From an uncultured Bacteroidales bacterium (GTDB lineage Bacteria; Bacteroidota; Bacteroidia; Bacteroidales; UBA7960): DNA of 64,000 nucleotides. The stretch spans positions 5,714 to 69,713 of the forward strand of contig CAZBGI010000014.1 of assembly GCA_964491395.1 (NCBI GenBank). Reading direction: 5' to 3'. The position numbers and the translations under genes are program-made. The notes beneath the pieces were generated by a model. It saw only the letters and a list, made by a program, of their open reading frames with translations, was not told the DNA's origin and ran no database searches. Numbering within the stretch: position 1 is the stretch's first letter; each line of letters begins with the position of its first letter. Shown here piece by piece: positions 40,726 through 64,000 of the stretch.

Positions 40726-40836
40726 ATCTTTTTTTATCAGATGTATTTTCCGTAAAAATACCCATTGTTGAGCCTGGTTGTTTTTGTATATTTCGCATCT
40801 GTTTTAACAAAGTTGCCGGAGATAAAAACTGAAGCC

Positions 40837-41415
40837 ATGACCAAAACATCCTTTGAACCGCAAAAGATTCTGTTCCCAATGCCTGTAAGCTTAATTGTAA
40901 CAGGGATTCCTGAAAAAGCGAATATTGTCACCATTGCATGGGTGAGTTTGCTCACCAGTGCACCCCCTACTTTAGGGATTTCTGTTGGTTCCAGGGGGTT
41001 TTCAGGAGATGAAATACTGAAAAACAAGCACTTTACGGTTAATATTGCAGGAACGGATATCATGACCGAAGCCGATTATTGCGGCATTACCTCTGGAAAG
41101 GAAGTGGATAAATTTGAAAAAACCGGTTTAACCAAAATTCCCTCCCTTAAAATCCCTTCCCCTATCATCAAAGAATGCCCTCTGAATATTGAATGCCAAC
41201 TGGTGTCTTCCTCTCTTGTGGGAAAGACCCATCATTTTGTTGGTAAAATCCTGCAGGTACATATGGATACCGATAAATTGAAAGATCCGGAAAATCCGGG
41301 TTCTTATATTGCGGAAGCGATGGATCCACTCATATACATGGGAGGAGCAAGAGAATACCGGAAGCTGGGTGAAAAAATTGGAGATGCTTACAGTATTGGG
41401 AGAAAATTGGGTTAA
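40837..41415 (+). CDS. Flavin reductase-like FMN-binding protein
   Basis: FPMPVSLIVT, NIVTIAW, FTVNI, DYCGITSG..DKF and IKECPLNIEC. Confidence 0.88.
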   Translation: MTKTSFEPQKILFPMPVSLIVTGIPEKANIVTIAWVSLLTSAPPTLGISVGSRGFSGDEILKNKHFTVNIAGTDIMTEADYCGITSGKEVDKFEKTGLTKIPSLKIPSPIIKECPLNIECQLVSSSLVGKTHHFVGKILQVHMDTDKLKDPENPGSYIAEAMDPLIYMGGAREYRKLGEKIGDAYSIGRKLG

Positions 41416-41575: not shown

Positions 41576-42151
41576 ATGGACGAAAATGGAAACAGGTTTC
41601 TTTCTGACAAGGATCTTTGGCTATTGATAGCGCAAAGTTCGGTTGGAGATTCTTACAGACCCCTAAATTTGCGTGGAGCTGTTCTTAGTGGTGCCCAATT
41701 AGCCGGTGCTGATTTGTCGGGTGCCAATTTTTCAAAAGCCGATCTGAGAGGTGCCAACCTGCAGGGCGCCAACCTCTCCGGAGCATTTCTGGCCAATGCC
41801 GATTTAAGCAATGCCAACCTTGTGGGGGCAACTGTGGACGGTGCCGTGTTGGCAGGTGCCAATCTGAGTCATGCAAATGTAAATGAGGCCGATCTTTCGG
41901 ATACCAACCTGGCAGATGCTGATTTGACAAAAATATCTGCAGTCAATTGTGATTTTACCCGCTCTGATCTTTCGCAATGCATTATCCGGTATGGGGAACT
42001 TACACGTGCCAATTTGCTCAAAGCCAATCTTTCCGGAGCAGATCTGACTGGAGCTGATGTGCTGGAAGCCAATTTTGCCCGCACCTATTTCAATGATACT
42101 GTAATGGAGGGCATCATAAATCTGGAGCGGGCCGTGGGATATAAGGGTTGA
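41576..42151 (+). CDS. Pentapeptide repeat protein
   Basis: Tandem A(D/N)LxG-type pentapeptides (GADLS, GANLQ, NADLS...). Confidence 0.92.
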   Translation: MDENGNRFLSDKDLWLLIAQSSVGDSYRPLNLRGAVLSGAQLAGADLSGANFSKADLRGANLQGANLSGAFLANADLSNANLVGATVDGAVLAGANLSHANVNEADLSDTNLADADLTKISAVNCDFTRSDLSQCIIRYGELTRANLLKANLSGADLTGADVLEANFARTYFNDTVMEGIINLERAVGYKG

Positions 42152-43364: not shown

Positions 43365-43390
43365 TAAGGGTTTTGTGGGTCAGAACTGTC
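43365..43390 (+). promoter_or_regulatory. Putative ECF-sigma promoter TAAGGGT-N14-CTGTC (copy 1)
   Basis: TAAGGGT tttgtgggtcagaa CTGTC, 73 nt before ATG 43464. Same boxes and spacing as the copies at 55116 and 55830. Confidence 0.75.
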
Positions 43391-43463: not shown

Positions 43464-46400
43464 ATGAAAAAACTATTAACGATTTTGATCTCGCTGGCGA
43501 GTTTATCGCTTTGGAGCCAATCCCATGAGATAGCTCCTGAATATTATGAAAAGCGGATCCAGGAACGCAACCAAAAGCTATCTGAAAAGGGACAGTCTCC
43601 CTTGAATACTTCATTGAATGGTAACTCCCTTCACTACCAAACCCGGTCAGGGAAGGGTGCTGCTGCCCTGAATATGGATAAAAATAATACGGCTGAAGGA
43701 GAGTGGTTAATCTGGAACAATGGTGAATACAGCAATGCCCTGGGAGGACCGGAAAACTTTGTTTTTGATGTGGCCGCACGGTTTGAGCCTTCTGACTTGA
43801 CCAATCTGTCCGGCTATCAGGTATCTTCAGTGAGTATTGTTCCCGGTGATATGGCAGATTTTACACTGAAGATTTGGCAAGGACAAAATTCACCCCAGGA
43901 AATTTACTCCCAGGCTATTGATTCCATTTTACCTAACCAGGAAAATGTAATAGACCTTGATATGCCTGTCTTGATAGATGCAAGTCAGGACCTGTGGATA
44001 GGTTACCAGGTTTCCGGTACAAATGTTTATCCGGCAGGAGTTGACTCCGGGCCGGCTGTTACCGGAAAGGGTGATATGATAAATTTTGATGGAGTATGGT
44101 ATTCTCTTAACGATGAATTTTTCCTGAATTACAACTGGATGATAAGCGCATGGGTTGAACCTGCTGCTGATCCTGAAGCACCAGCAGCTCCCTTGCAATT
44201 AACTGCCACGGCAGATGAAAACGGTGAACTCATTGTTGACCTTGCCTGGAACAATCCATCCGTAAACTTTGAGGGGGGGGCGCTGGATGAATTGGATAAC
44301 ATCCTGATTTATCGGGGAGAGACTTTGCTGCAAACCATCAATGATCCTGTTATTGGCGGAAGCGAAAGTTTTACCGACGAGGGTATTGAATCTTCAGGTA
44401 CTGTCTCCTATGCTGTTGTGGCTGAAAACCAGAATGGCCAGGGACCCACGGCTCTCGCCTCCGTTTTTGCAGGGCCCGATGTTCCTGATGCTCCTTCCAA
44501 TGTTGTCCTCATCGCAGACGACAACAATGCTGTTGTTAGCTGGGATGCACCCCAGGAGGGTTTAAACGGGGGGGTTGTTAATCCTGCTCTTATGACTTAT
44601 ACTTTGGTAAGAATGCCTGATTCCGTGATGGTAGCACAGGATATTTCTTCTACTTCTTTTACCGACAGCTCAATCCCCGGAGCAGGAAATTACTTTTACA
44701 GGGTTACGGCCTTTAATGATCAGGGCGAGGGCGGCACTTCGGTATCCAATGTTACTTCGTTGGGACTGGAGGGTTTGCTTTACGCTGAAACTTTCGATTA
44801 TCAACCCGGCCCATTACCTGCTGGATGGGAATTAACAGGGGCGTCGCACCACTGGGAAATTTCTCACTCGGCTGTAGCCGGAGGTGAAACTCCTGAGTTG
44901 AGATTAAACTGGGTGCCGGCAACAACAGGCATAAGCAGGCTGGTGAGTCCTGCAATCGACCTGCAGGATAATGAGGCTGTACGGCTTATCTTTCATCAGT
45001 TCCTGGATAACTTTGCCGCTTCTGACAATGAAAAAATTGCCATGGATTATACTGTTGATGGAGGTGATAACTGGATAACCATCTGGGAGCAGGAACTAAC
45101 CGATGAGGATATTCCCCAGGACGAATACGATTATGTATTTAATGTTCCTTCCGATGTATCTTCCATTCAACTGGGTTTGCGCTTTGAGGGGAATACTTAT
45201 AATATAGACTATTGGCACATTGATAATATAATTATTCAACCATTACTTGACAATGATTTGATGGCTGAAAATATTGCAGGTAATGCTTATCCCGCTGCTG
45301 GTTCGGAGGCCCTATACACTGTTTCCGTGCAGAATGCAGGACAAACAGGCACTGACAATTTCGTTGTCAAACTAATGGGTGAAGGAGAAGTTGAGCTCTC
45401 GTCGGTTTCAGGAGAATTTCTGCAACCTGGTGAAATAGCCGAATTTTCTTTGCCCTGGACTCCCCAGCAAACCGGTAATACTTTTATTTATGGAGTAGTG
45501 GAATTTCCCGATGATGAGAATTCTGTTAACAATACAACCTCTGCGCTGGAAATAGAAGTTTTACCAGAAGGATCTTATGTTGCTCAGGTGGGAACACAGC
45601 CCACTTTTGCTCCAACCAATATTCCTTTTGACTTCTTCTGGAAGACAAGTCTGAGCCAGACATTGTACTATCCCGAAGAGTTGGGACTTACAGGTGGCGT
45701 ACTTACTGCTTTGCAGTACAAGAATGACTTTGAAACCGGTTTGAATGACAAGGAAATAAAAATATGGGTGGGAGAAACCCAGCAAGACAATCTTGTGGAT
45801 GGCTGGTTCGATGTCAATGAATTAATCCTTGTTTTTGAGGGAACAGTGGATTTTCCGGAAGGGAAAAATGATATTTTTATTCCGCTGGATACACCTTATC
45901 CCTACACCGGTGATAATCTTGTTGTGTTTACCAGCAACGAATATGAGGACCAATGGTTAGGATACGGCAACAATTTCTATGCTTCAGCAGATCCCGAGTC
46001 AGCACGCACTATAATAAGAACAGCAGACGAAGTGCTTGACCCTGCAAATCCCGGAACGTTCCATCAGAGCGACTGGTATCCCAATACAACCTTGTTTTTC
46101 TCAACAGAAGGCTTAGGGGGCCTGCAGGGCACCGTATCAGATAATCAGTCAACCCTGGAAGGTGCAGAGGTCAGGTTGGCAGGCACGCAAAGCACGACCT
46201 TAACGGATGAAGAAGGAAACTACCAATTCCCTTATGTTTTGCCAGGCAGCTATGATGTTGAATTTCGTTTGTTCGGCTACTTCTCACAGACTATTGAACA
46301 GGTTGAGATTGTTGTGGATGAAACCACCCAACTGGATGCAACCCTCGAATCCATTCCTCAATATACTGTTTCAGGTTCAGTGGAAGGTAACAATGGGCTG

Positions 46401-49370
46401 ATTCCCGGCAATGCTGTGATTACACTTTCCGGTTATGAGGATTACCTTGCGAATACAGACCAGAATGGTGATTTTACTATAGAAGGTGTTTTTGAAGGTG
46501 AATATACCTTCAGTGTTCTGGCTCCGGGTTACGAATCTTTTACCAATGAATCGCTGCTGGTAGATGGCGATATTGATCTGGGCCAGGTAGTCATTTCAGA
46601 AATTATTCTTACACCGGGTTCCCTTGCTATAGACTATGACAACTTTGGTGCAGGTAATGCCTTGCTTTCGTGGAACATTCCGCTGGGGGAAGAGTTCAGA
46701 TATGATAACGGAACACCCACTACCGCTTTGGGTACCAACAGTATCTCGGACCAGACTATCCTTGGTGTTGCTCACCCCCACAATGCAGAGTTGTTCGAAA
46801 TGTCATGGATATGGGGCAGTGATACCATAGAACAGGCTGTTGAAACGGTCAAAGTCTGGGTGTTTGGATTGAATGAAGAAGGATGGCCCGATCACAATGA
46901 TTTACTCTATTACGCTGATGAGGTTTCCGTAAAGCAGGATGGCGAATGGACAACCTACCAGTTCAGCCAGCCTGTTGATGCACCCAACGGATTCTTCATG
47001 GGTATTGGAGGTGAAGGCTTCCTGGCTTTGGCTGCAGAATTAGGTGAAGATCCTGATTGGCCTTTTGTTCCCAATACGCACTTCTTTAGTGCCGATGCAT
47101 TGTCAGGCAATTTTTCACCGCTTGAACTGTATGGATTCCCCTGGAACTTTTTCATCCGTGCTGTAGGAAATGATTATGGTAGCATCAATATCAAATCTTC
47201 TCAGGAGGCTGGTGAAATGATTGCATCTGAAGGTGAACCAGGATTCTTTGAAAGCCCCGTTCCGGCATCTGCTGGAAATCCTGCATATGCTTCCTTTGAG
47301 AATAAGGCTGCGGGTAAATCAGTAACCGGGTTTAATGTATTTCTTGAAGATATGGAAGAACCGGTAGCCTTTACCGAAGAGCTGGAGTATCTGTTTACTG
47401 AACTGCCCGAAGGAAACCTCACCGCAGGAGTGCAGTCTGTTTATAATACCGGGGTTTCTGAAATAGTAACCATCGATTTTGATTTGGTTTACCCGGTGGA
47501 AGTATCCTTGAATGTTACTGCCAATACAGGCGAGGTTCCTGAAGGGGCAGAAGTGCAGTTGCTAAACGAGCAATTAGAGCAATACTCCTATTCAGGTCAG
47601 ACAGATGCAACAGGGAATATAGAGTTTTCTTCCGTACGCAAAGGACTCTATACTTTGCTGATTTCACTGGAAAACTATGAAACCTATAGTGTGGAGAATA
47701 TTGAAATCCAATCTGACACTGCTTTGGATGCAGAATTGACTGAGCGGTTGGATGCACCTGTAAATCTGATGGTTACCAGAGATGGCCTGGAGCCAGGGCA
47801 GGTTTTGTTCAGCTGGAACAACCCCCTTCATGGATGGAATGAAAGTTTCGAAGATGGGGCCTTTCCCGAAAACTGGAGTCAGATCATTACAAACACCCAT
47901 ACTCAGTCAGGTTATGCCAATACATGGCAGATTGTAGAAACGGTTCCGTTTTCTAATCCGATTGTCCCTCAGGATGGCCAATACCAGGCGTTCATCATGT
48001 GGAGCTTTCTGGAACAGAGTGAATGGCTGATCTCTCCCGAATTTGTTGCTCCTGCCGGTGACCTGGTTTTCTGGTATCATGGTACAAACGGCTCCGATTT
48101 TGGGGACAACTATTACGTGAAAATCTCACAGGATAATGGGGATACATGGGATATTTTATGGAATGCAAGTGATCTGCCTTATGGGGTGAACAATTACACG
48201 GACTCCGTAGCTATTGATTTATCTCTCTATGCAGGAAACAATGTCCGTCTGGCCTGGCATGCAGATGATGGATCCAATGGAACAGGCTTGTGGAGCACAT
48301 GGGCGATTGATAACATTTCTGTGGGAGACCAATCCATGGATTTGAAAAACTTTGTTGCCGGTTTTCCCGGAAAGAATCGCCCTTTGGAAAACGTTGAAAA
48401 GAATGGCCATGCTTTGAATTATAATGTGTTTTTTGATGGTGATCTGATGGCAGAAGGAGTTTCTGATACGCAAATCCTGTTCAACGATGTTGCCGAAGGA
48501 AGCCATACGGCAGCAGTGCAGGCAGTTTACGCTACCGGTGTTTCCGAAATTGTGCCCATGGATTTTACCCTTAGTCAAACGTTCTTGTTAAGTCTGGTGT
48601 CCGATCCTGCCGGTAGTGGTTCACTGAGTGGATCAGCATGGTACAGTGAAGGTACAAAGGTGCTGATTAATGCTTCACCCAATGAAAACTATATGTTTTC
48701 CAACTGGACAACACAGGAAGGAGAAATCATCAGCGAAGATCCTTCGTTCTTCTTCACGATGCCGGGCAACGATGTTGTGCTCTCCGCCAATTTTGTGGAA
48801 GCAGAACAATACAACGTAACCTTTAACATTGATATGACCAATGCTTCTGTTTTCAATCCCTTCCAGGAAGATGTGGCACTTACAGGTTCTATGCATGACT
48901 GGGCTGTTTTGGGTACCAATCACCGAAACCAGGTGATGGCAGGTAACCATGAAACCATGGTTTACTCCAAGACATTCCTGATGGAACCCGGCGTGTATTC
49001 CTACAAATACTTCCTTAATGAAGGAGAGCATGAACATGAATGGGAAGAGGGTGATAACCGCGAGATTTTTGTAGAGAGTGACATGGAAGTTTTCGATGTT
49101 TGGGGCGTCCAAACGCCAACTCTTATCACAGAAACGGACTTATCAGAAACTACCCGTATTTTCCCCAATCCTTTCAATGATTTCATTGAAGTGACCGGAG
49201 CCGAAAAAAACAGCAGACTTATTATAACCAACATTCTTGGAGAGATAATCATGGATGAAATACTAACCACAAACCGCTTGAATACTTCTAACCTGCAACC
49301 TGGTATTTATGTGATTTATCTTGAAAACGATGATGGGAAAAGAGATGTGCGTAAATTGATAAAACAATAA
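43464..49370 (+). CDS. Large multidomain T9SS type-A cargo (FN3, cleaved-adhesin/choice-of-anchor-J-like, CARDB, carboxypeptidase-regulatory, InlB-B-repeat-like, CBM-like)
   Basis: Signal peptide MKKLLTILISLASLSLWS, FN3 motifs, ESFEDG..P..W..EWLISP, and C-terminal RIFPNPF..ITNILGE..LQPGIYVI..KLIKQ. Confidence 0.85.
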   Translation: MKKLLTILISLASLSLWSQSHEIAPEYYEKRIQERNQKLSEKGQSPLNTSLNGNSLHYQTRSGKGAAALNMDKNNTAEGEWLIWNNGEYSNALGGPENFVFDVAARFEPSDLTNLSGYQVSSVSIVPGDMADFTLKIWQGQNSPQEIYSQAIDSILPNQENVIDLDMPVLIDASQDLWIGYQVSGTNVYPAGVDSGPAVTGKGDMINFDGVWYSLNDEFFLNYNWMISAWVEPAADPEAPAAPLQLTATADENGELIVDLAWNNPSVNFEGGALDELDNILIYRGETLLQTINDPVIGGSESFTDEGIESSGTVSYAVVAENQNGQGPTALASVFAGPDVPDAPSNVVLIADDNNAVVSWDAPQEGLNGGVVNPALMTYTLVRMPDSVMVAQDISSTSFTDSSIPGAGNYFYRVTAFNDQGEGGTSVSNVTSLGLEGLLYAETFDYQPGPLPAGWELTGASHHWEISHSAVAGGETPELRLNWVPATTGISRLVSPAIDLQDNEAVRLIFHQFLDNFAASDNEKIAMDYTVDGGDNWITIWEQELTDEDIPQDEYDYVFNVPSDVSSIQLGLRFEGNTYNIDYWHIDNIIIQPLLDNDLMAENIAGNAYPAAGSEALYTVSVQNAGQTGTDNFVVKLMGEGEVELSSVSGEFLQPGEIAEFSLPWTPQQTGNTFIYGVVEFPDDENSVNNTTSALEIEVLPEGSYVAQVGTQPTFAPTNIPFDFFWKTSLSQTLYYPEELGLTGGVLTALQYKNDFETGLNDKEIKIWVGETQQDNLVDGWFDVNELILVFEGTVDFPEGKNDIFIPLDTPYPYTGDNLVVFTSNEYEDQWLGYGNNFYASADPESARTIIRTADEVLDPANPGTFHQSDWYPNTTLFFSTEGLGGLQGTVSDNQSTLEGAEVRLAGTQSTTLTDEEGNYQFPYVLPGSYDVEFRLFGYFSQTIEQVEIVVDETTQLDATLESIPQYTVSGSVEGNNGLIPGNAVITLSGYEDYLANTDQNGDFTIEGVFEGEYTFSVLAPGYESFTNESLLVDGDIDLGQVVISEIILTPGSLAIDYDNFGAGNALLSWNIPLGEEFRYDNGTPTTALGTNSISDQTILGVAHPHNAELFEMSWIWGSDTIEQAVETVKVWVFGLNEEGWPDHNDLLYYADEVSVKQDGEWTTYQFSQPVDAPNGFFMGIGGEGFLALAAELGEDPDWPFVPNTHFFSADALSGNFSPLELYGFPWNFFIRAVGNDYGSINIKSSQEAGEMIASEGEPGFFESPVPASAGNPAYASFENKAAGKSVTGFNVFLEDMEEPVAFTEELEYLFTELPEGNLTAGVQSVYNTGVSEIVTIDFDLVYPVEVSLNVTANTGEVPEGAEVQLLNEQLEQYSYSGQTDATGNIEFSSVRKGLYTLLISLENYETYSVENIEIQSDTALDAELTERLDAPVNLMVTRDGLEPGQVLFSWNNPLHGWNESFEDGAFPENWSQIITNTHTQSGYANTWQIVETVPFSNPIVPQDGQYQAFIMWSFLEQSEWLISPEFVAPAGDLVFWYHGTNGSDFGDNYYVKISQDNGDTWDILWNASDLPYGVNNYTDSVAIDLSLYAGNNVRLAWHADDGSNGTGLWSTWAIDNISVGDQSMDLKNFVAGFPGKNRPLENVEKNGHALNYNVFFDGDLMAEGVSDTQILFNDVAEGSHTAAVQAVYATGVSEIVPMDFTLSQTFLLSLVSDPAGSGSLSGSAWYSEGTKVLINASPNENYMFSNWTTQEGEIISEDPSFFFTMPGNDVVLSANFVEAEQYNVTFNIDMTNASVFNPFQEDVALTGSMHDWAVLGTNHRNQVMAGNHETMVYSKTFLMEPGVYSYKYFLNEGEHEHEWEEGDNREIFVESDMEVFDVWGVQTPTLITETDLSETTRIFPNPFNDFIEVTGAEKNSRLIITNILGEIIMDEILTTNRLNTSNLQPGIYVIYLENDDGKRDVRKLIKQ

Positions 49371-49420: not shown

Positions 49421-52400
49421 TTACGGTGCAATACTAAAGAGAAAAACCTCCCTGGAGTCTCCTGAAATCAGTGTAAGAACATAATTTCCCGGAAGAAGGT
49501 GCCCGACATGAAAGGTTTTCTGTAAACCTGTCAATGCTACTTTTTGTTTCAAAACAGGTTGCCCTGCCATGTTGTGAATTTGTGCTTCCATCACTTCTCC
49601 ATCTGAAAAAGAAGGACCAAAAACTGTGAGTTTATCTCTTGCCGGATTGGGATACAAAATCATCTCACCTGGCGCAGGGTTATCCTCCGGAATAACAATG
49701 TTGATTTTCAGAGCTTCTTTAATGCTGAGGGATACACTTTCAATGACTTCCTGCTGGGGAGTAATGTGCAATGGCAGGGAAGGTAGTGACTCGAAGCCGG
49801 CCATTTCTACCTCAAGGATGTAGGTTCCGTAAGGAAGATGGGTAAAGGAGAAGTTTCCATGGACATCGGTGAGTGTATGCCCGTATATCTTTTTACCGCT
49901 CAGGCTATACAAAAGAATACTGATATTGGAGAGTCCGCCGTTGCAAAACTCATCTTGGGAGTCTGAAAACCACGGTTGACAATATACATCTTTATCATCG
50001 GGGTGCAACTTAGGCAAGGCAAAATGTCCGCGGATGGTCCCGTTTCCGGAAGGGAATGATGTGTTAAGAGCGGGAATCCGGATGTCTATTCCATATGTAT
50101 TGCCTGTAAGATCGTGGATGTAAGCCTTCTCCCACCGGCTTTGCTCAACATAGTAGGATGGAAGTTGATTGTTTTCAGGCAGCGTATCGGAAGGAACATA
50201 CAGAATGTATTCACCCCTGAAAAGTCTGTCAAACCTAAATACCCCCTTATCATCAGTCCAGGTAAGAAATCGGGTAGGGAGTTCCGTGGGGTCGTCTTCC
50301 ATCAGAAATGCAACCACCGGGTTACCGCTAACCGGGTTATGATCGTACCACAGACTTCCCTCTATACTGTAAGCCGGCCGTATGAAAATTGTAACCGTAT
50401 CTCTGACGGTTTCGCAGTACCGGGAAAAAATTGTAAGTACAAGATTTATCTGTTGCCGGTTAATATCTTCAGGGCCGGGCGTGTAATCGGTGAGGATGCT
50501 GTCGGGATGGCTAAACACTCCATCTCCTGAACTTTCCCACTGAATGGAGTCCTCATGCAGTGCGTAAGCTTCTGAGGTGTTGAAGGTGTCTTCAGGAGCG
50601 ATAAAACTGTTTTTGCCTGCATAAGCTAACGGTAATGGTGCAAAAGATAAGAGAAATTCATCATACACAACCTGTTCTCCCTTCTGGGCACTGAGCCGAA
50701 GAACTACACTTCCGGATGCCCGGTCTTCTTCTCCGGGAAAATATGCAGGGCTTACATGCTCAGGATTGGAAAATGAACCATCACCAGAGGTTGTCCATGA
50801 AAATTCGTCCCATGATGCAGGAACATGGCCATGTTCTATGTTAAAGACTTCAACATCTACGCAGAGAGTAGTGTCGGTTCCTGCATAAGGTATGGCGCTG
50901 GCCAGGGCATAGGGGCTTTTGTTGCCGTCTGATTGGTCTTTGTTTTTATTATAATCCTGGTCATAAGCAGCTATACCTATGGTGCCTGTAGTATCTTCAG
51001 GAAGGAAAAACACCGTGTCTGTAAGCAATTCAGTGGAATCACTGAAGCTGTAATGGGAGAATTCTCCATAAAAGACTCTGTAGCCCAGCAGATCCGATTC
51101 AGGATTAGCTCTCCAGCTTAACCGAACAGAACCCTCAACGATCTGTTTTACAAAACCTGAAGGAGCCGAAACAGGAGCTTGCGTGTTGGCTTGCTCCAAT
51201 ATAGGCTTATAGTCCAATACTCCCAATGCAGGGTCATTAGAAAAATCATACAGAAGTTTTTCGATGATGCTGTCTTGGGTAGCCTCCCAGTAGGAATGGC
51301 TGATATTAATATCAAAAGGGGTTAAATTTTTAACAATGGCTGTATCTTTGCGGTTACGAAAAATATTGTTTCCTGAAAACAGCACATTCTGGCCTGCCAG
51401 AAAGGTAATTACATCTTCATCATTTCCGGTAAATGTATTTTCTCCAATAGCAATGTCGCTGGAGTTGTTTCTGAACATGATGCCCATTTTATTTTCATAG
51501 ATGCTGTTGTTGTGAAAATATGAATCACCGGTTGAAACAAAAGCGGCTGCCGTGGTATTGCGCCAAAAAATATTATGACTGATAAAGGTAGAATCCATGG
51601 AGTTGTAGATTCCGAATCCATCGTTGTCATTGCCGTTATTAATGATGATGTTTCTGCTGATATGGGTGTGGGCTGATGTCCCCAGATTAGAGCTGAACAG
51701 CCAGACTCCTTGCTGGCTGTTCTTAATGAGGTTTTCCTCCACTACATTGTGATAGCAGTAACCATGATTGTTGCTTTGAATACTGATATTGGTAATAAAG
51801 TTGCTGAATGTATTGCCGGCAATTGTATTGAAAGATGCCTGGTTTCCATTGCCCGTTGCATAAATCTCAACACCAATAAAATTATCCGTGAATAAATTCG
51901 CGCTTACATTCCAGTTGGAGCTGTTGGTCAGACTGACTCCGATAAAAAACACATCGCTGATAAGGCTGTTGGTAAGAGAAACATAATGTGCGTTCTGCCC
52001 TGTGATTCCTTTTACAGCATTTTTTATTACCACATAGTCGAACACAACATCGTCGGGGTTGTCGATGGCGCTTAAAGTTATCCCGTTCCAGTTCCAGGTT
52101 TCACCTTCACCATGATTGGGCAGCAAGCGGATGCTGTCAGTTTCGTTTCCCACCATAGAAAGGTTTCCTCCTTCCACATTGATTCCTCTTCCCTGCGAAA
52201 ATACAATGGTAGTACCGGCTTGCACCTGAAGAGAAGATCCGACCGGGACGGTAATATTATTGGCTACCCAGTAAATATTATCAGCCGTCCAGAAAGCAGA
52301 ACCATTTAATACCCCTCCAACTTCGATTATCGGTATATCTTTTTTGGTTTTTTCAACCTCTGAAGCAAATGAAGCACACTGCCCCATCAGGGCGACAACA

Positions 52401-52468
52401 ACCATACCGCCCTTTAGTAAGCTCATAAGTAGGCTCGTGAAAAAAGATAAGATGGTTTTGGTGTTCAT
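49421..52468 (-). CDS. T9SS type-A cargo with right-handed beta-helix, FN3, Ig/PKD-like and carboxypeptidase-regulatory-like domains
   Basis: Asn-rich parallel beta-helix repeats, LSWRANPESDLLGYRVFY (FN3), two W.(T/S)SGDG.FS repeats, and C-terminal LYPNPA..IHNMAGQ..PGNYVL. Confidence 0.82.
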   Translation of the reverse strand: MNTKTILSFFTSLLMSLLKGGMVVVALMGQCASFASEVEKTKKDIPIIEVGGVLNGSAFWTADNIYWVANNITVPVGSSLQVQAGTTIVFSQGRGINVEGGNLSMVGNETDSIRLLPNHGEGETWNWNGITLSAIDNPDDVVFDYVVIKNAVKGITGQNAHYVSLTNSLISDVFFIGVSLTNSSNWNVSANLFTDNFIGVEIYATGNGNQASFNTIAGNTFSNFITNISIQSNNHGYCYHNVVEENLIKNSQQGVWLFSSNLGTSAHTHISRNIIINNGNDNDGFGIYNSMDSTFISHNIFWRNTTAAAFVSTGDSYFHNNSIYENKMGIMFRNNSSDIAIGENTFTGNDEDVITFLAGQNVLFSGNNIFRNRKDTAIVKNLTPFDINISHSYWEATQDSIIEKLLYDFSNDPALGVLDYKPILEQANTQAPVSAPSGFVKQIVEGSVRLSWRANPESDLLGYRVFYGEFSHYSFSDSTELLTDTVFFLPEDTTGTIGIAAYDQDYNKNKDQSDGNKSPYALASAIPYAGTDTTLCVDVEVFNIEHGHVPASWDEFSWTTSGDGSFSNPEHVSPAYFPGEEDRASGSVVLRLSAQKGEQVVYDEFLLSFAPLPLAYAGKNSFIAPEDTFNTSEAYALHEDSIQWESSGDGVFSHPDSILTDYTPGPEDINRQQINLVLTIFSRYCETVRDTVTIFIRPAYSIEGSLWYDHNPVSGNPVVAFLMEDDPTELPTRFLTWTDDKGVFRFDRLFRGEYILYVPSDTLPENNQLPSYYVEQSRWEKAYIHDLTGNTYGIDIRIPALNTSFPSGNGTIRGHFALPKLHPDDKDVYCQPWFSDSQDEFCNGGLSNISILLYSLSGKKIYGHTLTDVHGNFSFTHLPYGTYILEVEMAGFESLPSLPLHITPQQEVIESVSLSIKEALKINIVIPEDNPAPGEMILYPNPARDKLTVFGPSFSDGEVMEAQIHNMAGQPVLKQKVALTGLQKTFHVGHLLPGNYVLTLISGDSREVFLFSIAP

Positions 52469-52480
52469 GTTATTTGATGG

Positions 52481-53821
52481 TTAGAAATAATATAACACTC
52501 CAAGTCTGATGCCTCCACCGTGAATTCTACGTTCCAGGGGATGATTCTGATTCCATGCAGTGAAATACCTGCGGTACCATGTTTCAGCAAAAATATCGCT
52601 GATGGCACTTAACCTGATTTTCGCTCCTAATCCACCCGACCAGGCCAGTACCCATGGAGAGAAATTGTTGCGGTTAACATAAACAGCAGGAAAGCCTTCC
52701 GTGTTTTCCACGCTTTGGGCATTCAGCCAAAGAGGCGTACTGGCATGGAAATTTCCCCGGGCATACCCCACAAAGTTGCGGCCGGCATAAAAATCCCACG
52801 ACAGAGCCAGGCTGGTTTCCACAAATCCCATCCGGTTCATCCTTTCATAAAAGATCTCCTGGCTTTCCAGGGGGATGTAAGTGGTATCGGTAATATGGGT
52901 CCAGATGGTGTCGTTTTGCTGAATCACAAAGAAGGAGTCCAGCGTATCAATTTGATTAAATCCTCCGGTGGAAAAAAGTTCTGAATAATTGAATCTGTGC
53001 GCAAAACTATTGATAGCAAGCCCTGCAATAACAGACACACTACCGGTATTGTATTGCAGGGAGGCACCCAACCCAAAGTTTCTCACAGAAAATGCATCTG
53101 CCTGGTTAATCTTTTCCAGATCCGGTGTGAGCGAAGGATTGCCGGTAAATTGATATTCGGTCATCATTTGGGTCAGGGCTATGCCGAAGGCCCATCGTTC
53201 ACGCCCATTGACTTCCACGCCCAGCAGATCGCGAACCAGTGTTTCGGGCCGGGTAATTTCACTCTGAGGCTGACGTTCAATAAAAACGGTATCTATGATT
53301 AATTGCTCTTCAACCTGGATTACCGTATCCCGGATAAATATTGTATCATATACAATCACAGTGTTGGAATAGGTAGAGGGAAGAGAATCTGAAAGTTGCC
53401 ATTGCCGGGGAGCAGGGGCAGGTTTACTTGTGGGCGAAGAGGATGTCATTGCCTGGGCAGGGGGCGGTCTTCGGGTTTTTTCTGTAGCCTTTAGGATAAT
53501 GAGATGATTGCCAGACTCCCTGAATTCATGTCCGTTTTGGGTGAGAATTTCCCTTAGTATGACCATGGGTGTTTTACCCGAAGCAGAGTAATTTATCAAT
53601 ACATCAAAAACATCTTCTGATGCATTGTAGGTAATATTTATATTGTGATGTGCAGAAAGCCTGTGAAGAACAGATTTTAGGGGTTCATTGCGGGCTTCAA
53701 ATTCAATGGGGTTTTGTTGATTCTTTGATAATGCTGTTTCAGGGCTAACAGGAAGCAGCAGGAAAAGAATAAACAGACCTGGAACAAAACTAAACGAATG
53801 AAATCTTTGGTTATCACTCAC
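52481..53821 (-). CDS. STN signalling domain plus small outer-membrane beta-barrel protein
   Basis: Signal peptide, STN-like segment (EPLKSVLHRLS..NITYN..ILREIL..EFRESGNHLII), Pro-rich linker, and about 8 amphipathic strands ending GGIRLGVLYYF. Confidence 0.7.
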   Translation of the reverse strand: MSDNQRFHSFSFVPGLFILFLLLPVSPETALSKNQQNPIEFEARNEPLKSVLHRLSAHHNINITYNASEDVFDVLINYSASGKTPMVILREILTQNGHEFRESGNHLIILKATEKTRRPPPAQAMTSSSPTSKPAPAPRQWQLSDSLPSTYSNTVIVYDTIFIRDTVIQVEEQLIIDTVFIERQPQSEITRPETLVRDLLGVEVNGRERWAFGIALTQMMTEYQFTGNPSLTPDLEKINQADAFSVRNFGLGASLQYNTGSVSVIAGLAINSFAHRFNYSELFSTGGFNQIDTLDSFFVIQQNDTIWTHITDTTYIPLESQEIFYERMNRMGFVETSLALSWDFYAGRNFVGYARGNFHASTPLWLNAQSVENTEGFPAVYVNRNNFSPWVLAWSGGLGAKIRLSAISDIFAETWYRRYFTAWNQNHPLERRIHGGGIRLGVLYYF

Positions 53822-54055
53822 GATCTTAAAGTTTTAATTCCCAAAACAAGTTTTAATTTTTCAGTTTTTGCGCATAACAACAAATCAACCACCCGATAGA
53901 ATATATTGTTTAGCGAATGATTAATTATTATGAAATGAACCTTTAGCCTTGTATTCCACCCTCAATTGTATCAGCACTGAACCTGCCTGCCATACATAAC
54001 AATGGCAGGATACCCTGAGGATATCCTGCAATAACGATGGGAAGGTTGGAGTAGC

Positions 54056-55069
54056 TCAATGGGCTACAACATAAGTATTATGTTCTTTTTCAATGGTTAC
54101 ATCAAAAAGAATTTCCAGGGAGTTGAAAATATCTTCTGGTTTTTCATTGATAAATCGTGCTGTAAGTTTTTGATCCTCAATTTCTGAGGCCCATTTAATG
54201 TCGATATAATAAGCTTTGCTGATATCGCTTAAAACATCGGTTAGAGGTGTTTCCACAAACTCCAGTTTGCCGGTTTTCCATGCCATGAAGTTATAATTAT
54301 CAATAGGTTCCCTTGTAAAAGCTTGCGAACTGGGTTTCCAGGTCACTTTCTGATCTGCTGAAAGAGTAATGGATTCCCCGGATTCTGTTTCCAGGATTAC
54401 TTTTCCTGAGAGTACTGCCAATTCAATATTTCCTGTGTTGTGGTCTTGCAAAATATTGAAAGAGGTTCCCGGTACAATTACCCTGGCACCTTCAAGTTCA
54501 ATAATGAAAGGGTATTGGTCATAAGTATTTACATCAAAAAATGCATTTCCTTCGAGGCTCACTCTGCGCTGATCTTTGGAAAATTCAGCAGGATAATTCA
54601 GGGTTGCCTTACCGTTAAAAAACACGGTGGTCCCATCATTAAGCAGAATAGAGTCAGTGGTGGTGGGTTGTACATTCTCATAACTCAGTAGCTGGTTTTT
54701 CTGGTTCTGAAAAATCATGAAAAATACTCCTGATATAATAATCAGCATGGCAGCTATGCCTGAGAGAAGGTATGCACGGTGCTTAAAACTGGTGTTTAGC
54801 GGAATGATTTTGTTATGTGATTCATCGGATTGTTGTTCGTACGCATCTATTTTTTGATTGATTCGTTCCCAGGCCAGTTTTTTGTTAATGGTAATTTCTG
54901 GGGCCTGTGCAGGAGAGGTTTGCCATATTTTTTGATATTCTTTAAAAAATTCAAGATGGTTTGCAGAGGATTCCAACCAGGCTTGCAGTTCTTTTTTTTC
55001 ATTGTCGGTGGCTTCCCCTGCAAGCACCCGGGTGATGAGCAAATTGTATTTTTCTGATATGTTTTCCAT
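54056..55069 (-). CDS. FecR-family anti-sigma factor
   Basis: N-terminal GEAT..E..ELQAWL, a TM segment, LNDGTTVFFN..LNYP..F...R.V.LEGNAFFDV, GTSFNI and AWKTGKL.F..TPL. Confidence 0.93.
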   Translation of the reverse strand: MENISEKYNLLITRVLAGEATDNEKKELQAWLESSANHLEFFKEYQKIWQTSPAQAPEITINKKLAWERINQKIDAYEQQSDESHNKIIPLNTSFKHRAYLLSGIAAMLIIISGVFFMIFQNQKNQLLSYENVQPTTTDSILLNDGTTVFFNGKATLNYPAEFSKDQRRVSLEGNAFFDVNTYDQYPFIIELEGARVIVPGTSFNILQDHNTGNIELAVLSGKVILETESGESITLSADQKVTWKPSSQAFTREPIDNYNFMAWKTGKLEFVETPLTDVLSDISKAYYIDIKWASEIEDQKLTARFINEKPEDIFNSLEILFDVTIEKEHNTYVVAH

Positions 55070-55115
55070 GGTAATCGTTGTATGGGTGTTTTATTGTTGC
55101 AGTGTTAATACTACT

Positions 55116-55141
55116 GACAGTCTTGTTGATGAATACCCTTA
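55116..55141 (-). promoter_or_regulatory. Putative ECF-sigma promoter TAAGGGT-N14-CTGTC (copy 2, upstream of fecR)
   Basis: Minus strand TAAGGGT attcatcaacaaga CTGTC, 46 nt before the fecR ATG. Confidence 0.75.
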
Positions 55142-55210
55142 GTGGCTTGAATAAAATTTTTGATATTGTTTGTTACGGTATAGATTTACCGGCTGCACCT
55201 GATTTTGTGG

Positions 55211-55783
55211 TCAGGCTGCTCCTGTAATCAGCATCAGCAGCAGAACCAGATAATCCTTCAGGTATTTTCTGAGGTGCTCCAGCGCAGCACTAAGATGTGC
55301 CTCGACGGTTTTAACAGATATATCCATCTTGCTGGCAATATCAGCATAGGATAATCCGTGGCTACGGCTGTATTCATATACCATTCTGCGTTTGGGAGAC
55401 ATGGTTTCCATCCCCATGGCTACCAGGGCTTTGATTTCTTTTTGATGGATGTCGGAAGTATACGCTTCCGATGAAATCGCTTTTCCCAGCTCCTGTTTGC
55501 GATGACTTAATCTTACCTTCAGGTGTTCCTGATGATTGATGATCTTGTTCAGTGCCATGCGGTATAAGTATGATTTGAGTGAAGTCGTTATTTTCAACTC
55601 ATCTCTCTTGACCCACAATTTTACAAAGATGTCCTGTACAATTTCTTCGGCCTCTTCCTGGTTGCCTGTCCTGATGGTGCAGTAACGGGAAAGAGGTTCG
55701 TACCAGGTCTGGAAGATTTCTTCAAAAATGCGCCTGTCTCCTTTGCGTAAACCTTCCATGAGATGGATGTTTTCGGGCTCCAT
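55211..55783 (-). CDS. ECF RNA polymerase sigma factor (Bacteroidota FecI-like)
   Basis: AEEIVQDIFVKLW, SLKSYLY and LSYADIA..MDISVKTVEAHL, with a hydrophobic C-terminal tail. ATG 55783 is chosen because TTG 55849 lies inside the promoter motif. Confidence 0.93.
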   Translation of the reverse strand: MEPENIHLMEGLRKGDRRIFEEIFQTWYEPLSRYCTIRTGNQEEAEEIVQDIFVKLWVKRDELKITTSLKSYLYRMALNKIINHQEHLKVRLSHRKQELGKAISSEAYTSDIHQKEIKALVAMGMETMSPKRRMVYEYSRSHGLSYADIASKMDISVKTVEAHLSAALEHLRKYLKDYLVLLLMLITGAA

Positions 55784-55829
55784 GCTGAATAGTGGGTTAT
55801 GTTGAATTTGGTTTAATTGGCTTATGAGT

Positions 55830-55855
55830 GACAGTTCAGAGGGGGCCAACCCTTA
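55830..55855 (-). promoter_or_regulatory. Putative ECF-sigma promoter TAAGGGT-N14-CTGTC (copy 3, autoregulatory)
   Basis: Minus strand TAAGGGT tggccccctctgaa CTGTC, 46 nt before the sigma ATG and directly after the pepT terminator. Confidence 0.75.
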
Positions 55856-55869
55856 GTCTGCCTACCCGC

Positions 55870-55920
55870 AAAAACAAAAACAGGCTGTATCAGAAAGCTT
55901 CACCTGCCTGATACAGCCTG
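55870..55920 (-). terminator. pepT terminator
   Basis: 13-bp inverted repeat CAGGCTGTATCAG/CTGATACAGCCTG followed by TTTTTGTTTTT on the minus strand. Confidence 0.85.
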
Positions 55921-61496: not shown

Positions 61497-64000
61497 ATGG
61501 AAACTAAACCCCGATTAAGTTTCATGCGATTTGCATGGATTGCGGCATTTCTGTCTATGAGCCTGCAAGGAGGATATTCCCAGCAAGTCGATGCAGAGAT
61601 AATTGATCCCGGGCAATTTTTGATGCAATATGAAGGGATTGAGGAAGTAAGACCTCGTTTTTTTGCCTTGCGAAGTGAACTGGGTGGTCGTGAAATTCAG
61701 GTTTTGGACACTCTTAGCCTGGAAGAACGTAACAGTATCGAAGAGACTTTTCAGCCTCCGGCTGTTGGAGTTATAAGAGATTTGAAACCCTCTGTCAGCT
61801 TTTATCTTAACCAGGCCGACCTACCCAAAGAAGGGGAGATGTCCGTTACCGGGGGGCGCCTTACACGCCTCAATAAAGATACCCTGGTCTTTACCTCTTA
61901 TTTTCAATCTTTGAAAGCAGACGAAATCAGGGTGTTTTTTGCCGAAGGTAATTTCCCTGATGGTGTTCAGGTAAATATTTTCAGTGAAAATGATTATGCT
62001 TTCACTGAAACACAGTTGCGGGGTCGGATAGATGAGTATGGTTTTTATACCACCACAACCTTTGCTGATCATCTTACCCTTCAGGTGGTAATACCTTTAA
62101 ATCAACTGGAGGATGACCTGTATTTTGTAATCTCCAGAATCATTCATGTGGATAACCAGTATCTTCCCGAAGAGTTCCGGGATTGTTTTCTGGATGCAAA
62201 TTGTTCAACAGCCAACGGATATACCCATATTGATGGATTGAGACGTTCTACGGGACGACTTTATTTTCCTGTAGGTTCACTGTATTATTTTTGCACGGGC
62301 AACCAAATCAATGATGTTCGCGCCAAAGACTGGCAACCTTTTTTATTGACAGCCAATCATTGTTTCAGCTCTCAAACATCAGCAGCGGGGCTGGAAGCAA
62401 GGTTTTACTATTGGTCTACCAGTTGCAACAGCGGGGTTGTGAATCCTAGTCATATTATCAGAAATGGAGCAAATCTGATTGCCACCAATAGTCAGACCGA
62501 CTTTACACTTGTTCTGATGAAGCAATTCTCAGCCAATTCTTTCCTGGGCTGGAGTGCAAATGCAGTTGCCAACAATACGGTTTTGCATTCTACCCATCAT
62601 CCGGGTGGCACATTATTAAAGTACCAGCGTATGCAGAACAAAACCTCACCCACATTTACCTGTGATGGTTTTAGTACCTCCAACTATCATTATACAAAAA
62701 CCACCCATGGACAGGAAGAAGGAGGGAGTTCAGGTAGTGCTACAGTGGATGCAGACTTGAGAATACGAGGACAATTGTATGGATGGTGTTACCTGCTGAG
62801 TGGTGCAGACCAATGTGATTACGATACGTATCATAATATGTGGGGTCGCTTCGATGTAACCTACAATAATAATAACCTGCAATACTGGCTATATAACGGA
62901 GGTGCAAGCGTGGCCATGACTACCAGTCCGGCCTCCTCTTATAGTTATGGAAATGTGAATGTAGGCTCCTATTCCAACCTGACGGTAACAGTAACCAATA
63001 CCGGCACAAGACCCAACTACATGAATCTGGAGGCTGGTAATGCCAGCCTTTCCGGAACCCATGCCAGCCAGTTTTCCATAATCGGAAGTAATTTCCTTTA
63101 TCTTGCCCCGGGAGAGTCAAGTACTTTTACAGTTAGGTTTACGCCTTCTTCTACGGGGACAAAAACCGCCACCCTTACCATTCCCCATAATGCTGATAAT
63201 ATCACCAGCCCCAGGACAATAAGCCTTACCGGAACCGGCGCATCTGCGCCCAATCCCTGTGCAAATATCATTTCCCTGGGTAGTGGCGGCAGTGGCAATG
63301 CCAAAACCTACTCAAAATCAGGAACAGGCGTCTGGAATGTGAATGCCTGCGGATATACTACCAGCGGGCAGGAGCAGGTATATAGTTTTGTGGCTCCATA
63401 TACCGGTAATTATAGTATCCAGGTAACTTCCACCAACAACACATGGGTGGACTATTTCTGGAAAACCGGCACATGTGGTTCTACGGGATGGAATTGTATT
63501 GATGATGTTTACTCTGCGAATACCTATGGAAATATTAGTATGACTGCTGGAACAACCTATTATATCCTGTTGGATGCAGAATCTACCGGTACTTCCACTC
63601 ATACTTTTTATATTTTCCGCAATCCCTGCCTTAATATTTTGTCGATGGGTGCCGGAGGTTCTGCCAATACAATGACGTATTCGCGCTCAGGCTATGGGGG
63701 TTGGAAAAGTGATGCCTGTGGATACGACTGCTACGGGAGGGAGCAGATCTACAGCTTTGTGGCCCCTTATACTGGTAATTACAGCATCCAGGTCACTGCA
63801 ACCAATGAAGCATGGGTAGATTACTTTTTGAAAACGGGAAGCTGCAATGCTGATAGTTGGACTTGCATAAGTGATGTTTACTCTCAGGGAGTTTATGGTG
63901 ACATGAGCCTGACGGCAGGTACAACCTATTATATCCTGGTTGATGCAGAAAGCACAGAGTGGGTAACCCAAAGCTTTTTCATATTCTTCAATCCCTGCCT
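61497..64000 (+). CDS. Secreted trypsin-like (lysyl endopeptidase-related) serine protease with an Ig-like (choice-of-anchor D) domain and 123-aa repeats; runs off the right edge
   Basis: Not in the ORF track because it has no stop in the window. From ATG 61497 it reads a signal peptide, a prodomain, CTG..IN, LLTANHC (His codon 62358), TDFTL, HHPGG, EGGSSGS, RGQLYG and WGRF, then VTVTNTG..LAPGES..VRFTP..TLTI..LTGTG. Confidence 0.88.
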   Translation, partial: METKPRLSFMRFAWIAAFLSMSLQGGYSQQVDAEIIDPGQFLMQYEGIEEVRPRFFALRSELGGREIQVLDTLSLEERNSIEETFQPPAVGVIRDLKPSVSFYLNQADLPKEGEMSVTGGRLTRLNKDTLVFTSYFQSLKADEIRVFFAEGNFPDGVQVNIFSENDYAFTETQLRGRIDEYGFYTTTTFADHLTLQVVIPLNQLEDDLYFVISRIIHVDNQYLPEEFRDCFLDANCSTANGYTHIDGLRRSTGRLYFPVGSLYYFCTGNQINDVRAKDWQPFLLTANHCFSSQTSAAGLEARFYYWSTSCNSGVVNPSHIIRNGANLIATNSQTDFTLVLMKQFSANSFLGWSANAVANNTVLHSTHHPGGTLLKYQRMQNKTSPTFTCDGFSTSNYHYTKTTHGQEEGGSSGSATVDADLRIRGQLYGWCYLLSGADQCDYDTYHNMWGRFDVTYNNNNLQYWLYNGGASVAMTTSPASSYSYGNVNVGSYSNLTVTVTNTGTRPNYMNLEAGNASLSGTHASQFSIIGSNFLYLAPGESSTFTVRFTPSSTGTKTATLTIPHNADNITSPRTISLTGTGASAPNPCANIISLGSGGSGNAKTYSKSGTGVWNVNACGYTTSGQEQVYSFVAPYTGNYSIQVTSTNNTWVDYFWKTGTCGSTGWNCIDDVYSANTYGNISMTAGTTYYILLDAESTGTSTHTFYIFRNPCLNILSMGAGGSANTMTYSRSGYGGWKSDACGYDCYGREQIYSFVAPYTGNYSIQVTATNEAWVDYFLKTGSCNADSWTCISDVYSQGVYGDMSLTAGTTYYILVDAESTEWVTQSFFIFFNPC
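63252..64000 (+). repeat. 369-nt tandem coding repeats in the protease (two full copies and the start of a third)
   Basis: AATCCCTG (NPC) at 63252, 63621 and 63990. The copies share YSFVAPYTGNYSIQVT, WVDYF.KTG.C and TAGTTYYIL.DAEST. Confidence 0.85.

Follow-up and report, generated by a model that had tools for sequence, protein, structure and literature searches.

The stretch analysed here, 64,000 nucleotides (nt) of contig CAZBGI010000014.1 from an uncultured Bacteroidales bacterium (hereafter the window), carries a cassette of four co-oriented genes on the minus strand. In order, these encode an extracytoplasmic function (ECF) sigma factor, a FecR-type anti-sigma factor, a protein of 446 amino acids (aa) joining an STN signalling domain to a small barrel, and a 1015-aa cargo protein of the type IX secretion system (T9SS). 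All four open reading frames (ORFs) were found at the coordinates given for them in the original prediction, which had been made from the letters of the window alone. A second T9SS cargo gene converges on the cassette from the plus strand. The cassette is probably a module of the cell-surface-signalling type in which the small STN-barrel protein stands in place of a TonB-dependent transporter. The genes are as follows.

55211..55783, minus strand: ECF sigma factor, 190 aa from the ATG at 55783 (begun at TTG 55849 in the ORF list, giving 212 aa)
54056..55069, minus strand: FecR-type anti-sigma factor, 337 aa, with a DUF4880 N-terminus, one transmembrane helix, a FecR domain and a FecR_C/STN-like C-terminus
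52481..53821, minus strand: candidate outer-membrane transducer, 446 aa, with a signal peptide, STN domain, Pro/Ser/Thr linker, DT hexads and 8-stranded barrel
49421..52468, minus strand: cargo 1, a 1015-aa beta-helix T9SS protein with CarboxypepD_reg domains and a type A T9SS C-terminal domain
43464..49370, plus strand: cargo 2, a convergent giant T9SS protein, 1968 aa from the ATG at 43464 (begun at GTG 43419 in the ORF list, giving 1983 aa)

The first gene of the cassette encodes a sigma factor of the Bacteroidetes subfamily TIGR02985 (142.3 bits against a cut-off of 126.4), which also matches Sigma70_r2 and r4_2. Its true start is probably the ATG at 55783 rather than the listed TTG at 55849, because the TTG falls within a conserved promoter-like motif described below and orthologues are 189-206 aa long. 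The next gene product matches the Pfam families FecR (PF04773, E 1.5e-10), FecR_C (PF16344, E 4.7e-8) and DUF4880 (E 0.0011). The gene for cargo 1 begins 12 nt past the stop of the barrel gene, and its product contains NosD/Beta_helix, CarboxypepD_reg and Por_Secre_tail domains (PF18962, E 1.4e-10) with a tail of type A (TIGR04183, 43 bits against a cut-off of 23). A sequence search of the PDB with cargo 1 returned a single marginal match (E 0.0089), which gave no functional clue. Cargo 2 features CarboxypepD_reg, CARDB and Por_Secre_tail domains (PF18962, E 1.3e-11). The four cassette proteins contain no Plug, TonB-dependent receptor barrel or SusD match in Pfam or NCBIfam at E <= 0.1, which agrees with the earlier statement that the set lacks a plug, a large barrel and SusD.

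The 446-aa protein has no match in NCBIfam. A structural model built with AF2 from 13 sequences (predicted local distance difference test score, pLDDT, 56.6) was replaced by a run with 91 family members (pLDDT 83.1), and this second model consists of a signal-peptide helix, the STN domain at residues 39-111, an unmodelled linker at residues 112-205 and a barrel at residues 208-445. The original prediction had expected an STN fold followed by a barrel of about eight strands from profile and structure prediction on 52481..53821, and both were found. The parts of the protein lie at the following positions.

53489..53707, minus strand: STN signalling domain, residues 39-111 (AF2 pLDDT >93; fold matches)
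53273..53353, minus strand: tandem DT-hydrophobic hexads, residues 157-183 (DTIFIR DTVIQV EEQLII DTVFIE), a conserved periplasmic motif of the STN-barrel family
52826..52999, minus strand: four-stranded beta-meander in loop 2 (predicted extracellular), residues 275-332, carrying GGF.IDTLD.FF, NDTIW and TDTTYIPLE
52484..53200, minus strand: 8-stranded OmpA-like beta-barrel, residues 208-446, ending ...GVLYYF (AF2, fold matches, and OMP_b-brl_2 in 33 of 91 members)

The N-terminal domain resembles the C-terminal domain of a Parabacteroides anti-sigma factor (4m0h, Z 10.6), the N0 domain of GspD (3ezj, Z 10.2), PupR (6ovm_R, Z 9.9) and the signalling domain of PupB (6ovk_B, Z 9.2). It is assigned as STN, even though the protein's own match is sub-threshold, because 61 of 91 relatives match STN, the domain is modelled at pLDDT >93 and the fold matches reach Z 9.2-10.6; on this evidence the STN fold claimed for this domain holds. 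The C-terminal part matches the N-terminal barrel of OprF best (4rlc, Z 18.4, root-mean-square deviation 2.1 over 132 residues), followed by NspA (1p4t, Z 17.9), OmpA (3nb3, Z 17.4), PagL (Z 16.8) and OmpW (2f1t, Z 16.7). The top-scoring fold matches are mostly 8-stranded barrels and the lengths of the modelled strands indicate that eight of them cross the membrane, while the barrel topology of the model would place the loop 2 meander outside the cell. The protein ends in YYF and thus carries a C-terminal aromatic residue. With the OmpA, OmpW, NspA and OprF N-terminal barrels (OMP_b-brl_2, OMP_b-brl) it shares the fold (Z 16.7-18.4) and this terminal residue, and it differs from them in its added N-terminal STN domain, its DT-hexad linker and the conserved 58-residue meander of loop 2.

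A word-indexed search with the 446-aa protein retrieved 13 relatives, and an exhaustive profile search retrieved 1195 proteins at E <= 1e-3, 119 at <= 1e-10 and 78 at <= 1e-30. Full-length matches are nearly all 400-480 aa long and form about 100 clusters at 50% identity with the same length and architecture; this uniform size argues for a genuine family and not a decayed transporter. Broken remnants of a TonB-dependent transporter were considered as a source of the protein and ruled out by the uniform family length together with the intact, aromatic-ended barrel. Among 91 full-length members, Pfam identifies STN in 61, FecR_C in 36, OMP_b-brl_2 (PF13568) in 33 and OMP_b-brl in 16. No Pfam or NCBIfam model is dedicated to the family and its nearest protein-atlas clusters are annotated only as 'hypothetical protein', so that this is an unnamed family of the Bacteroidota. 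Conservation across the 91 members has two peaks, the DT-hexad stretch at residues 157-183 (2.16 bits per column) and the loop 2 meander (2.13), compared with 1.88 for the STN domain and 1.4-1.95 for the membrane strands. Within the meander, 11 of 58 columns hold a single residue in at least 80% of members. The hexad unit reads D-T-[VIL]-[FVIY]-[IVRL], and at least three DT dipeptides are present in the linker of 90 of the 91 members, where a spacing of 6 is the commonest (160 gaps), followed by 12 and 8. The hexads are absent from those barrel relatives that have no STN domain and are instead fused directly to a membrane anchor.

The linkage of homologues to sigma/fecR pairs, which the original prediction had proposed to survey, was read from gene context. 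Close relatives (31-76% identity) were found at seven loci from 31 pattern matches in a genome-collection scan and at one locus from 42 in a metagenome scan. In a FastTree tree of 97 rows the close copies all fall within one 27-row clade, and the class was therefore sampled more widely: a search of 401 genomes gave eight further, distant full-length copies in three genomes. Gene context was read for 16 copies, eight close (including the window, with loci L005 and L007 taken as one split pair) and eight distant. The order sigma, FecR, STN-barrel is kept in seven of the eight close contexts (the window, L002, L003, L004, L005+L007, L006 and L034), and the next gene in order in close contexts with this set encodes a beta-helix T9SS protein of about 1005 aa. 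All eight distant copies show the same order, with sigma factors of 189-206 aa, FecR proteins of 331-348 aa and STN-barrel proteins of 434-483 aa. Sigma and FecR genes thus lie directly upstream in 15 of 16 contexts, across proteins 18-76% identical to that of the window, and the linkage is confirmed.

In 13 of the 16 contexts the gene after the barrel gene encodes a T9SS tail; in the remaining three (L004, L084 and L088) the sequence is cut off by a contig end. Orthologues of cargo 1 at 37-77% identity occur in L001, L002, L003, L004, L006, L007 and L034, and those of cargo 2 in L001 (78%), L002 (74%) and L034 (48% over 1300 aa), with a partial one only in L003. At the distant loci, the next gene has a T9SS tail in six of eight cases; the other two encode leucine-rich repeat (LRR) proteins that run off their contigs. 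The distant T9SS passengers comprise a CBM96 protein, one with SprB repeats and PKD, an SBBP propeller and three proteins with few or no other recognised domains. These distant cargo genes follow a gap of 60-190 nt and have an upstream motif of their own.

The genome of the bacterium (97% complete) contains three FecR genes and three STN-bearing ORFs, and each FecR gene adjoins one of the latter: an STN-CarboxypepD-Plug transporter on contig C93, a 514-aa STN protein on contig C1 and the small barrel of the window. The original prediction had allowed that this FecR might partner with a transporter encoded elsewhere, but no orphan STN transporter was found at this completeness. The set on contig C1 (L062, 5317-8720, minus strand) is compact and consists of a sigma factor (187 aa), a FecR protein (337 aa) and the 514-aa STN protein, this last with a CarboxypepD_reg domain and the TonB-box-like string 'QEVVVSGY'. 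Over its C-terminal part of about 290 aa the STN protein has no plug or barrel match, and its end is non-aromatic; it may be a further STN partner that is no transporter, or else a shortened SusC.

Relatives of the barrel also occur in fused form at three loci, where the barrel ORF directly follows, or overlaps, an ECF sigma gene.

L087, 2706-4849: fused barrel protein, 529 aa, profile E 8e-39, followed by a PKD T9SS cargo gene
L091, 6190-8942: fused barrel protein, 726 aa, profile E 1e-30
L021, 398-2214: fused barrel protein, 428 aa, profile E 2e-22

In each of these three proteins a brief N-terminal stretch is followed by a single hydrophobic helix, a long linker of low complexity and a barrel with a segment like loop 2, and by this layout they are candidate trans-envelope anti-sigma factors. 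The split form (FecR with the STN-barrel protein) and the fused form appear to be alternative arrangements for coupling the same kind of barrel to an anti-sigma factor, and the fused relatives therefore support the view that FecR and the STN-barrel protein are functionally connected. Together with the 15 of 16 contexts and the one-to-one pairing in the genome, they suggest that the STN domain contacts FecR.

A promoter-like motif, TAAGGGT-N13-(A/G)CTGTC, is present in three copies in the window.

55830..55855, minus strand: motif copy 1, TAAGGGT-N13-ACTGTC, 46 nt upstream of the sigma ATG, a candidate autoregulated ECF promoter
55116..55141, minus strand: motif copy 2, TAAGGGT-N13-ACTGTC, 46 nt upstream of the fecR ATG
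43365..43390, plus strand: motif copy 3, TAAGGGT-N13-ACTGTC, 73 nt upstream of the cargo 2 ATG

All three sites are on the correct strand for sigma, fecR and cargo 2. The core AGGGT-N14-CTGTC was found three times in the 64-kb window against 0.05 expected, and none of 100 shuffles reached three. The motif also lies upstream of the sigma genes in six loci (L002, L004 as CAGGGT, L005, L006, L034 and L063) and recurs between sigma and fecR in L002, L004, L034 and L063, with a TTGTC variant in L003 and L005. Before the cargo 2 orthologues it is found in L034 and in genome G744 (L071, at a distance of 76 nt to the ATG), and an ATGTC variant precedes the corresponding neighbour gene in L003. At the distant loci the regions upstream of fecR and of the cargo gene have other, locus-specific strings in common, for example TTTGGTGT[AC] in L084, L086 and L088 and CACTAGGG[AT]AAATCC in L082. 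The motif and these strings may be the promoters of the respective sigma factors. The output proposed earlier, T9SS surface proteins, is supported to the extent that sigma, fecR and the gene of a further T9SS cargo have this predicted promoter in common. Among the core-motif matches of the genome a single additional copy has the full consensus (TAAGGGT-N13-GCTGTC, C60:13808-13831, minus strand, L061); it lies 186 nt upstream of an ORF for an S8 subtilase with a signal peptide, which may be a further member of the regulon.

The proposed working of the cassette follows the logic of cell-surface signalling. At rest, the periplasmic STN domain would bind the FecR_C domain of the inner-membrane FecR and stabilise it, and FecR would retain the ECF sigma factor. 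This step is modelled on FoxA, whose signalling domain in the absence of signal binds FoxR and shields it from proteolysis (PMC11637429). An event in the outer membrane or at the surface, sensed by the barrel and its conserved loop, would then disrupt the contact between STN and FecR; FecR would be degraded and the sigma factor released. The freed sigma factor would transcribe from TAAGGGT-N13-RCTGTC promoters its own gene, the presumed operon of fecR, barrel and cargo 1, and cargo 2, so that the output would be T9SS-secreted surface proteins instead of nutrient uptake. In this scheme, the STN-FecR contact, the proteolytic release of sigma, the motif as the promoter of this sigma factor and the nature of the signal are the parts that we infer. 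A cue common to the family, such as the state of the outer membrane or a shared T9SS element like the type A tail, is more likely than the adjacent passenger, because loop 2 is conserved while the neighbouring passengers differ between loci.

The defining component of cell-surface signalling is a TonB-dependent transporter with two roles, nutrient import and signalling. The window set contains the sigma factor, the FecR anti-sigma factor and the STN partner of such systems but has no TonB-dependent transporter as the partner. The Bacteroidetes FecI-like groups of the ECF reclassification occur with FecR and are linked to carbohydrate scavenging (PMC7826278). Compared with FecIRA-type systems and the ECF240-type SusC-like transducers of the Bacteroidota as outlined there, the cassette has the same TIGR02985 sigma, the same anti-sigma with FecR and FecR_C domains, the same STN-first outer-membrane partner beside fecR and candidate sigma-dependent promoters before the regulated genes (PMC7826278). 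It differs from them in that its partner has an 8-stranded OmpA-like barrel instead of a plug, a 22-strand barrel and a SusD neighbour, and in that the predicted regulated genes are T9SS cargo and not an uptake system.

The nearest precedent for a non-transporter STN receptor is VreA of the Pseudomonas aeruginosa PUMA3 system (VreA-VreR-VreI), a periplasmic protein of 23 kDa that is mostly soluble, lacks a barrel and has a C-terminal domain resembling TolA/TonB (PMC2729926). Both systems keep an STN 'receptor' that is no TonB-dependent transporter, and the regulon of both (in the window, as predicted) includes substrates of a secretion system and not iron uptake (PMC2729926). In contrast to VreA, the STN domain of the window is tethered to an integral outer-membrane barrel, and the two systems differ in phylum and in secretion system (two-partner secretion against T9SS). 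A second comparison is with the Phocaeicola vulgatus pair M0N98_03760/61, which is induced by envelope stress and whose anti-sigma factor is described as spanning the periplasm and ending in a C-terminal outer-membrane barrel; a similar pair of B. fragilis responds to oxidative stress (PMC9308784). An ECF sigma factor linked to a small outer-membrane barrel is common to this type, as described, and the cassette, and the fused architecture is seen in L087, L091 and L021, whose barrels are homologous to the window barrel. The window splits the link into FecR and the STN-barrel protein, whereas the Bacteroides/Phocaeicola type has it in a single polypeptide, and the regulon published for the latter concerns lipopolysaccharide and protection and not T9SS cargo (PMC9308784).

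No literature was found that describes a small barrel bearing an STN domain or a FecR-type protein controlling T9SS cargo; the supplementary context tables of PMC7826278, which lay outside the search, could list such a neighbourhood. The papers retrieved that join an STN domain, FecR and the outer membrane all deal with TonB-dependent transducers. In the papers covered, regulation of the T9SS by an ECF sigma factor figures only as a two-component system acting on the secretion components, according to the title of a study cited in PMC7826278. The cassette would thus be an undescribed form of surface signalling, one that keeps sigma, anti-sigma and STN domain yet mounts the last of these on a small barrel incapable of transport. 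Should the proposal hold, signalling would be separated from transport, leaving an uncomplicated system in which to study the control of a FecR protein by an STN domain, and individual T9SS cargo genes would be under control at the level of sigma factors. It would also bridge the split FecR type and the fused barrel-bearing anti-sigma factors of gut Bacteroides, of which the B. fragilis pair is presumably the one named EcfO/Reo.

Several observations weigh against this proposal. With an 8-stranded barrel that has neither plug nor lumen, a route from the surface to the periplasmic STN domain is hard to see. Taken alone, the 446-aa protein has only a sub-threshold Pfam match, to FecR_C (E 0.0022, residues 43-109). 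Full-length copies are scarce, with one in 401 genomes phylum-wide and four in 401 class-wide, the bacterium's own genome included in both (samples of 401 species genomes each, four candidates scored per genome). In L001, the closest relative, genes for MiaA and an M14 peptidase precede the barrel and cargo genes; FecR (67% identical) and its sigma are on another contig of that genome, preceded by the M20 peptidase gene that also precedes them in the window. In the 17 kb scanned at the barrel/cargo 1 locus of L001 (G744), where this pair stands apart from sigma-fecR, the motif was not seen, and it is likewise missing directly upstream of the barrel gene in the window. Genome-wide, the core motif is not rare, with ten matches against eight for a reversed control, and the loose pattern AAGGGT-N12-16-ACTGTC has four against three, which is non-significant alone; the meaning of the motif rests on its clustering and conserved position. 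Two further elements separate fecR from the barrel gene.

54005..54029, minus strand: 11-bp hairpin just 3' of the fecR stop, kept in L002, with no clear T-run
53899..53912, minus strand: conserved AT-rich TAAACAATATATTC box about 75 nt upstream of the barrel gene, also in L001, where sigma and fecR are absent

The TAAACAATATATTC box is possibly an internal promoter of the housekeeping type. Given this box, the hairpin after fecR and the lack of a motif copy there, the barrel and cargo 1 genes may have a basal promoter of their own besides read-through from the fecR promoter. A scan of the locus for sigma-70 promoters and terminators gave chance levels (16 against 15.9 and 7 against 7.7). The window locus occurs in seven DNA runs from microbial-mat metagenomes in two studies, and no RNA runs are listed with it. 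On balance, the signalling proposal retains its STN domain, small barrel, linkage to sigma/fecR and, through the motif, its T9SS output, but the TonB independence that the original prediction had attached to it is not supported, its sole basis being the absence of a plug.

This last point admits an alternative in which the protein is a TonB-energised small-barrel transducer. The DT hexads would be TonB boxes, and TonB pulling on the linker would displace STN from FecR, giving signalling without transport. The hexads look like a run of TonB boxes of the proteobacterial form, DT-I/L-V-V, and they sit after the STN domain, as TonB boxes do in TonB-dependent transducers. At least three linker DT dipeptides in 90 of 91 members, mostly 6 apart, and the rank of the hexads among the two best-conserved regions (2.16 against 1.88 bits per column for STN) also speak for it, as do eight TonB_C-bearing ORFs in the bacterium's own genome. 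The anchor-fused barrel homologues have no hexads, hence the hexads travel with the STN mode of coupling. However, the other STN proteins of this genome show different TonB-box-like strings, EVTV in the plug-bearing transporter and EVVVSGY in the 514-aa protein, and a DT spacing like that of the linker is found within the surface loop of the barrel, so that DT may be a mere strand-start preference of the family. The hexad region is also unordered in the AF2 model, and there is no plug for TonB to unfold. A co-folding run concerning TonB binding scored 0.01 against a mark of 0.32, a value that, lacking controls, counts neither for nor against it. TonB-driven release is regarded as unlikely.

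A related reading takes the STN-barrel protein and FecR as the two halves of a trans-envelope anti-sigma device that watches T9SS traffic or the state of the outer membrane. In this reading the surface meander would read a feature common to type A cargo (the tail, the lipid anchor or free attachment sites) and the tandem DT hexads would be a release element coupled to force or to TonB. It is an unlikely reading. If true, many unrelated T9SS surface proteins would each have their own feedback-controlled sigma factor, a dedicated signalling route for the expression of T9SS cargo would exist, and the protein would be the first example of an 8-stranded barrel serving as an outer-membrane signalling receptor.

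The idea that the barrel mainly docks, anchors or helps to export the adjacent T9SS cargo, with STN and FecR only reporting whether the cargo is in place, takes up the docking suggested in the original prediction and is improbable. Barrels of the PorP/SprF kind serve type B T9SS cargo, and the arrangement of the genes is suggestive of a partner: barrel and cargo 1 genes are 12 nt apart and still together in L001 without sigma-fecR, and in 13 of 16 contexts the next gene encodes a T9SS C-terminal domain, with contig ends interrupting the remainder. The downstream passengers are nevertheless unrelated (beta-helix, CBM96, SprB repeats, SBBP propeller, LRR), yet the surface loop is conserved. Unlike a PorP/SprF-type partner of type B cargo, the barrel protein has no match to such a Pfam family at E <= 0.1 and is found with cargo tails of type A, and the cargo genes at the distant loci have their own upstream motif and a gap of 60-190 nt. 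Chance adjacency, with the 446-aa protein an ordinary OmpA-like porin bearing a decorative STN-like domain and FecR signalling with a transporter elsewhere or with none, could draw on the protein's sub-threshold STN/FecR_C hit in Pfam and on the lack of an adjacent sigma-fecR in the close relative L001, but it is already disfavoured and very improbable in view of the sigma-FecR pair immediately before the barrel gene in 15 of 16 contexts (barrel proteins 18-76% identical to that of the window), the one-to-one FecR-STN pairing with no orphan STN transporter found in the genome, and an STN fold modelled at high confidence.

The surroundings of the signalling cassette contain further features. 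Upstream of it lies the M20 peptidase gene, which is parted from the candidate sigma promoter by the following element.

55869..55920, minus strand: hairpin and T-run 3' of the upstream M20 peptidase gene (direct sequence reading)

The window also encodes a 4290-aa ORF (12615-25487, minus strand), far larger than any other in the window. At the end of the stretch, an ORF of >834 aa that runs off the window (61497-63998, plus strand) has Ig-like domains of the ASH/Cep192/CARDB type; passengers of this type are also found in the neighbour of the cassette in L003, and the motif scan of the window saw no copy upstream of the ORF. A pair of genes for a pentapeptide-repeat protein and a flavin reductase (41576-42151 and 40765-41415) lies near the cassette in the window and adjoins it in L007 (3555-4932), and some wider synteny is therefore retained between the genomes of the window and L007.

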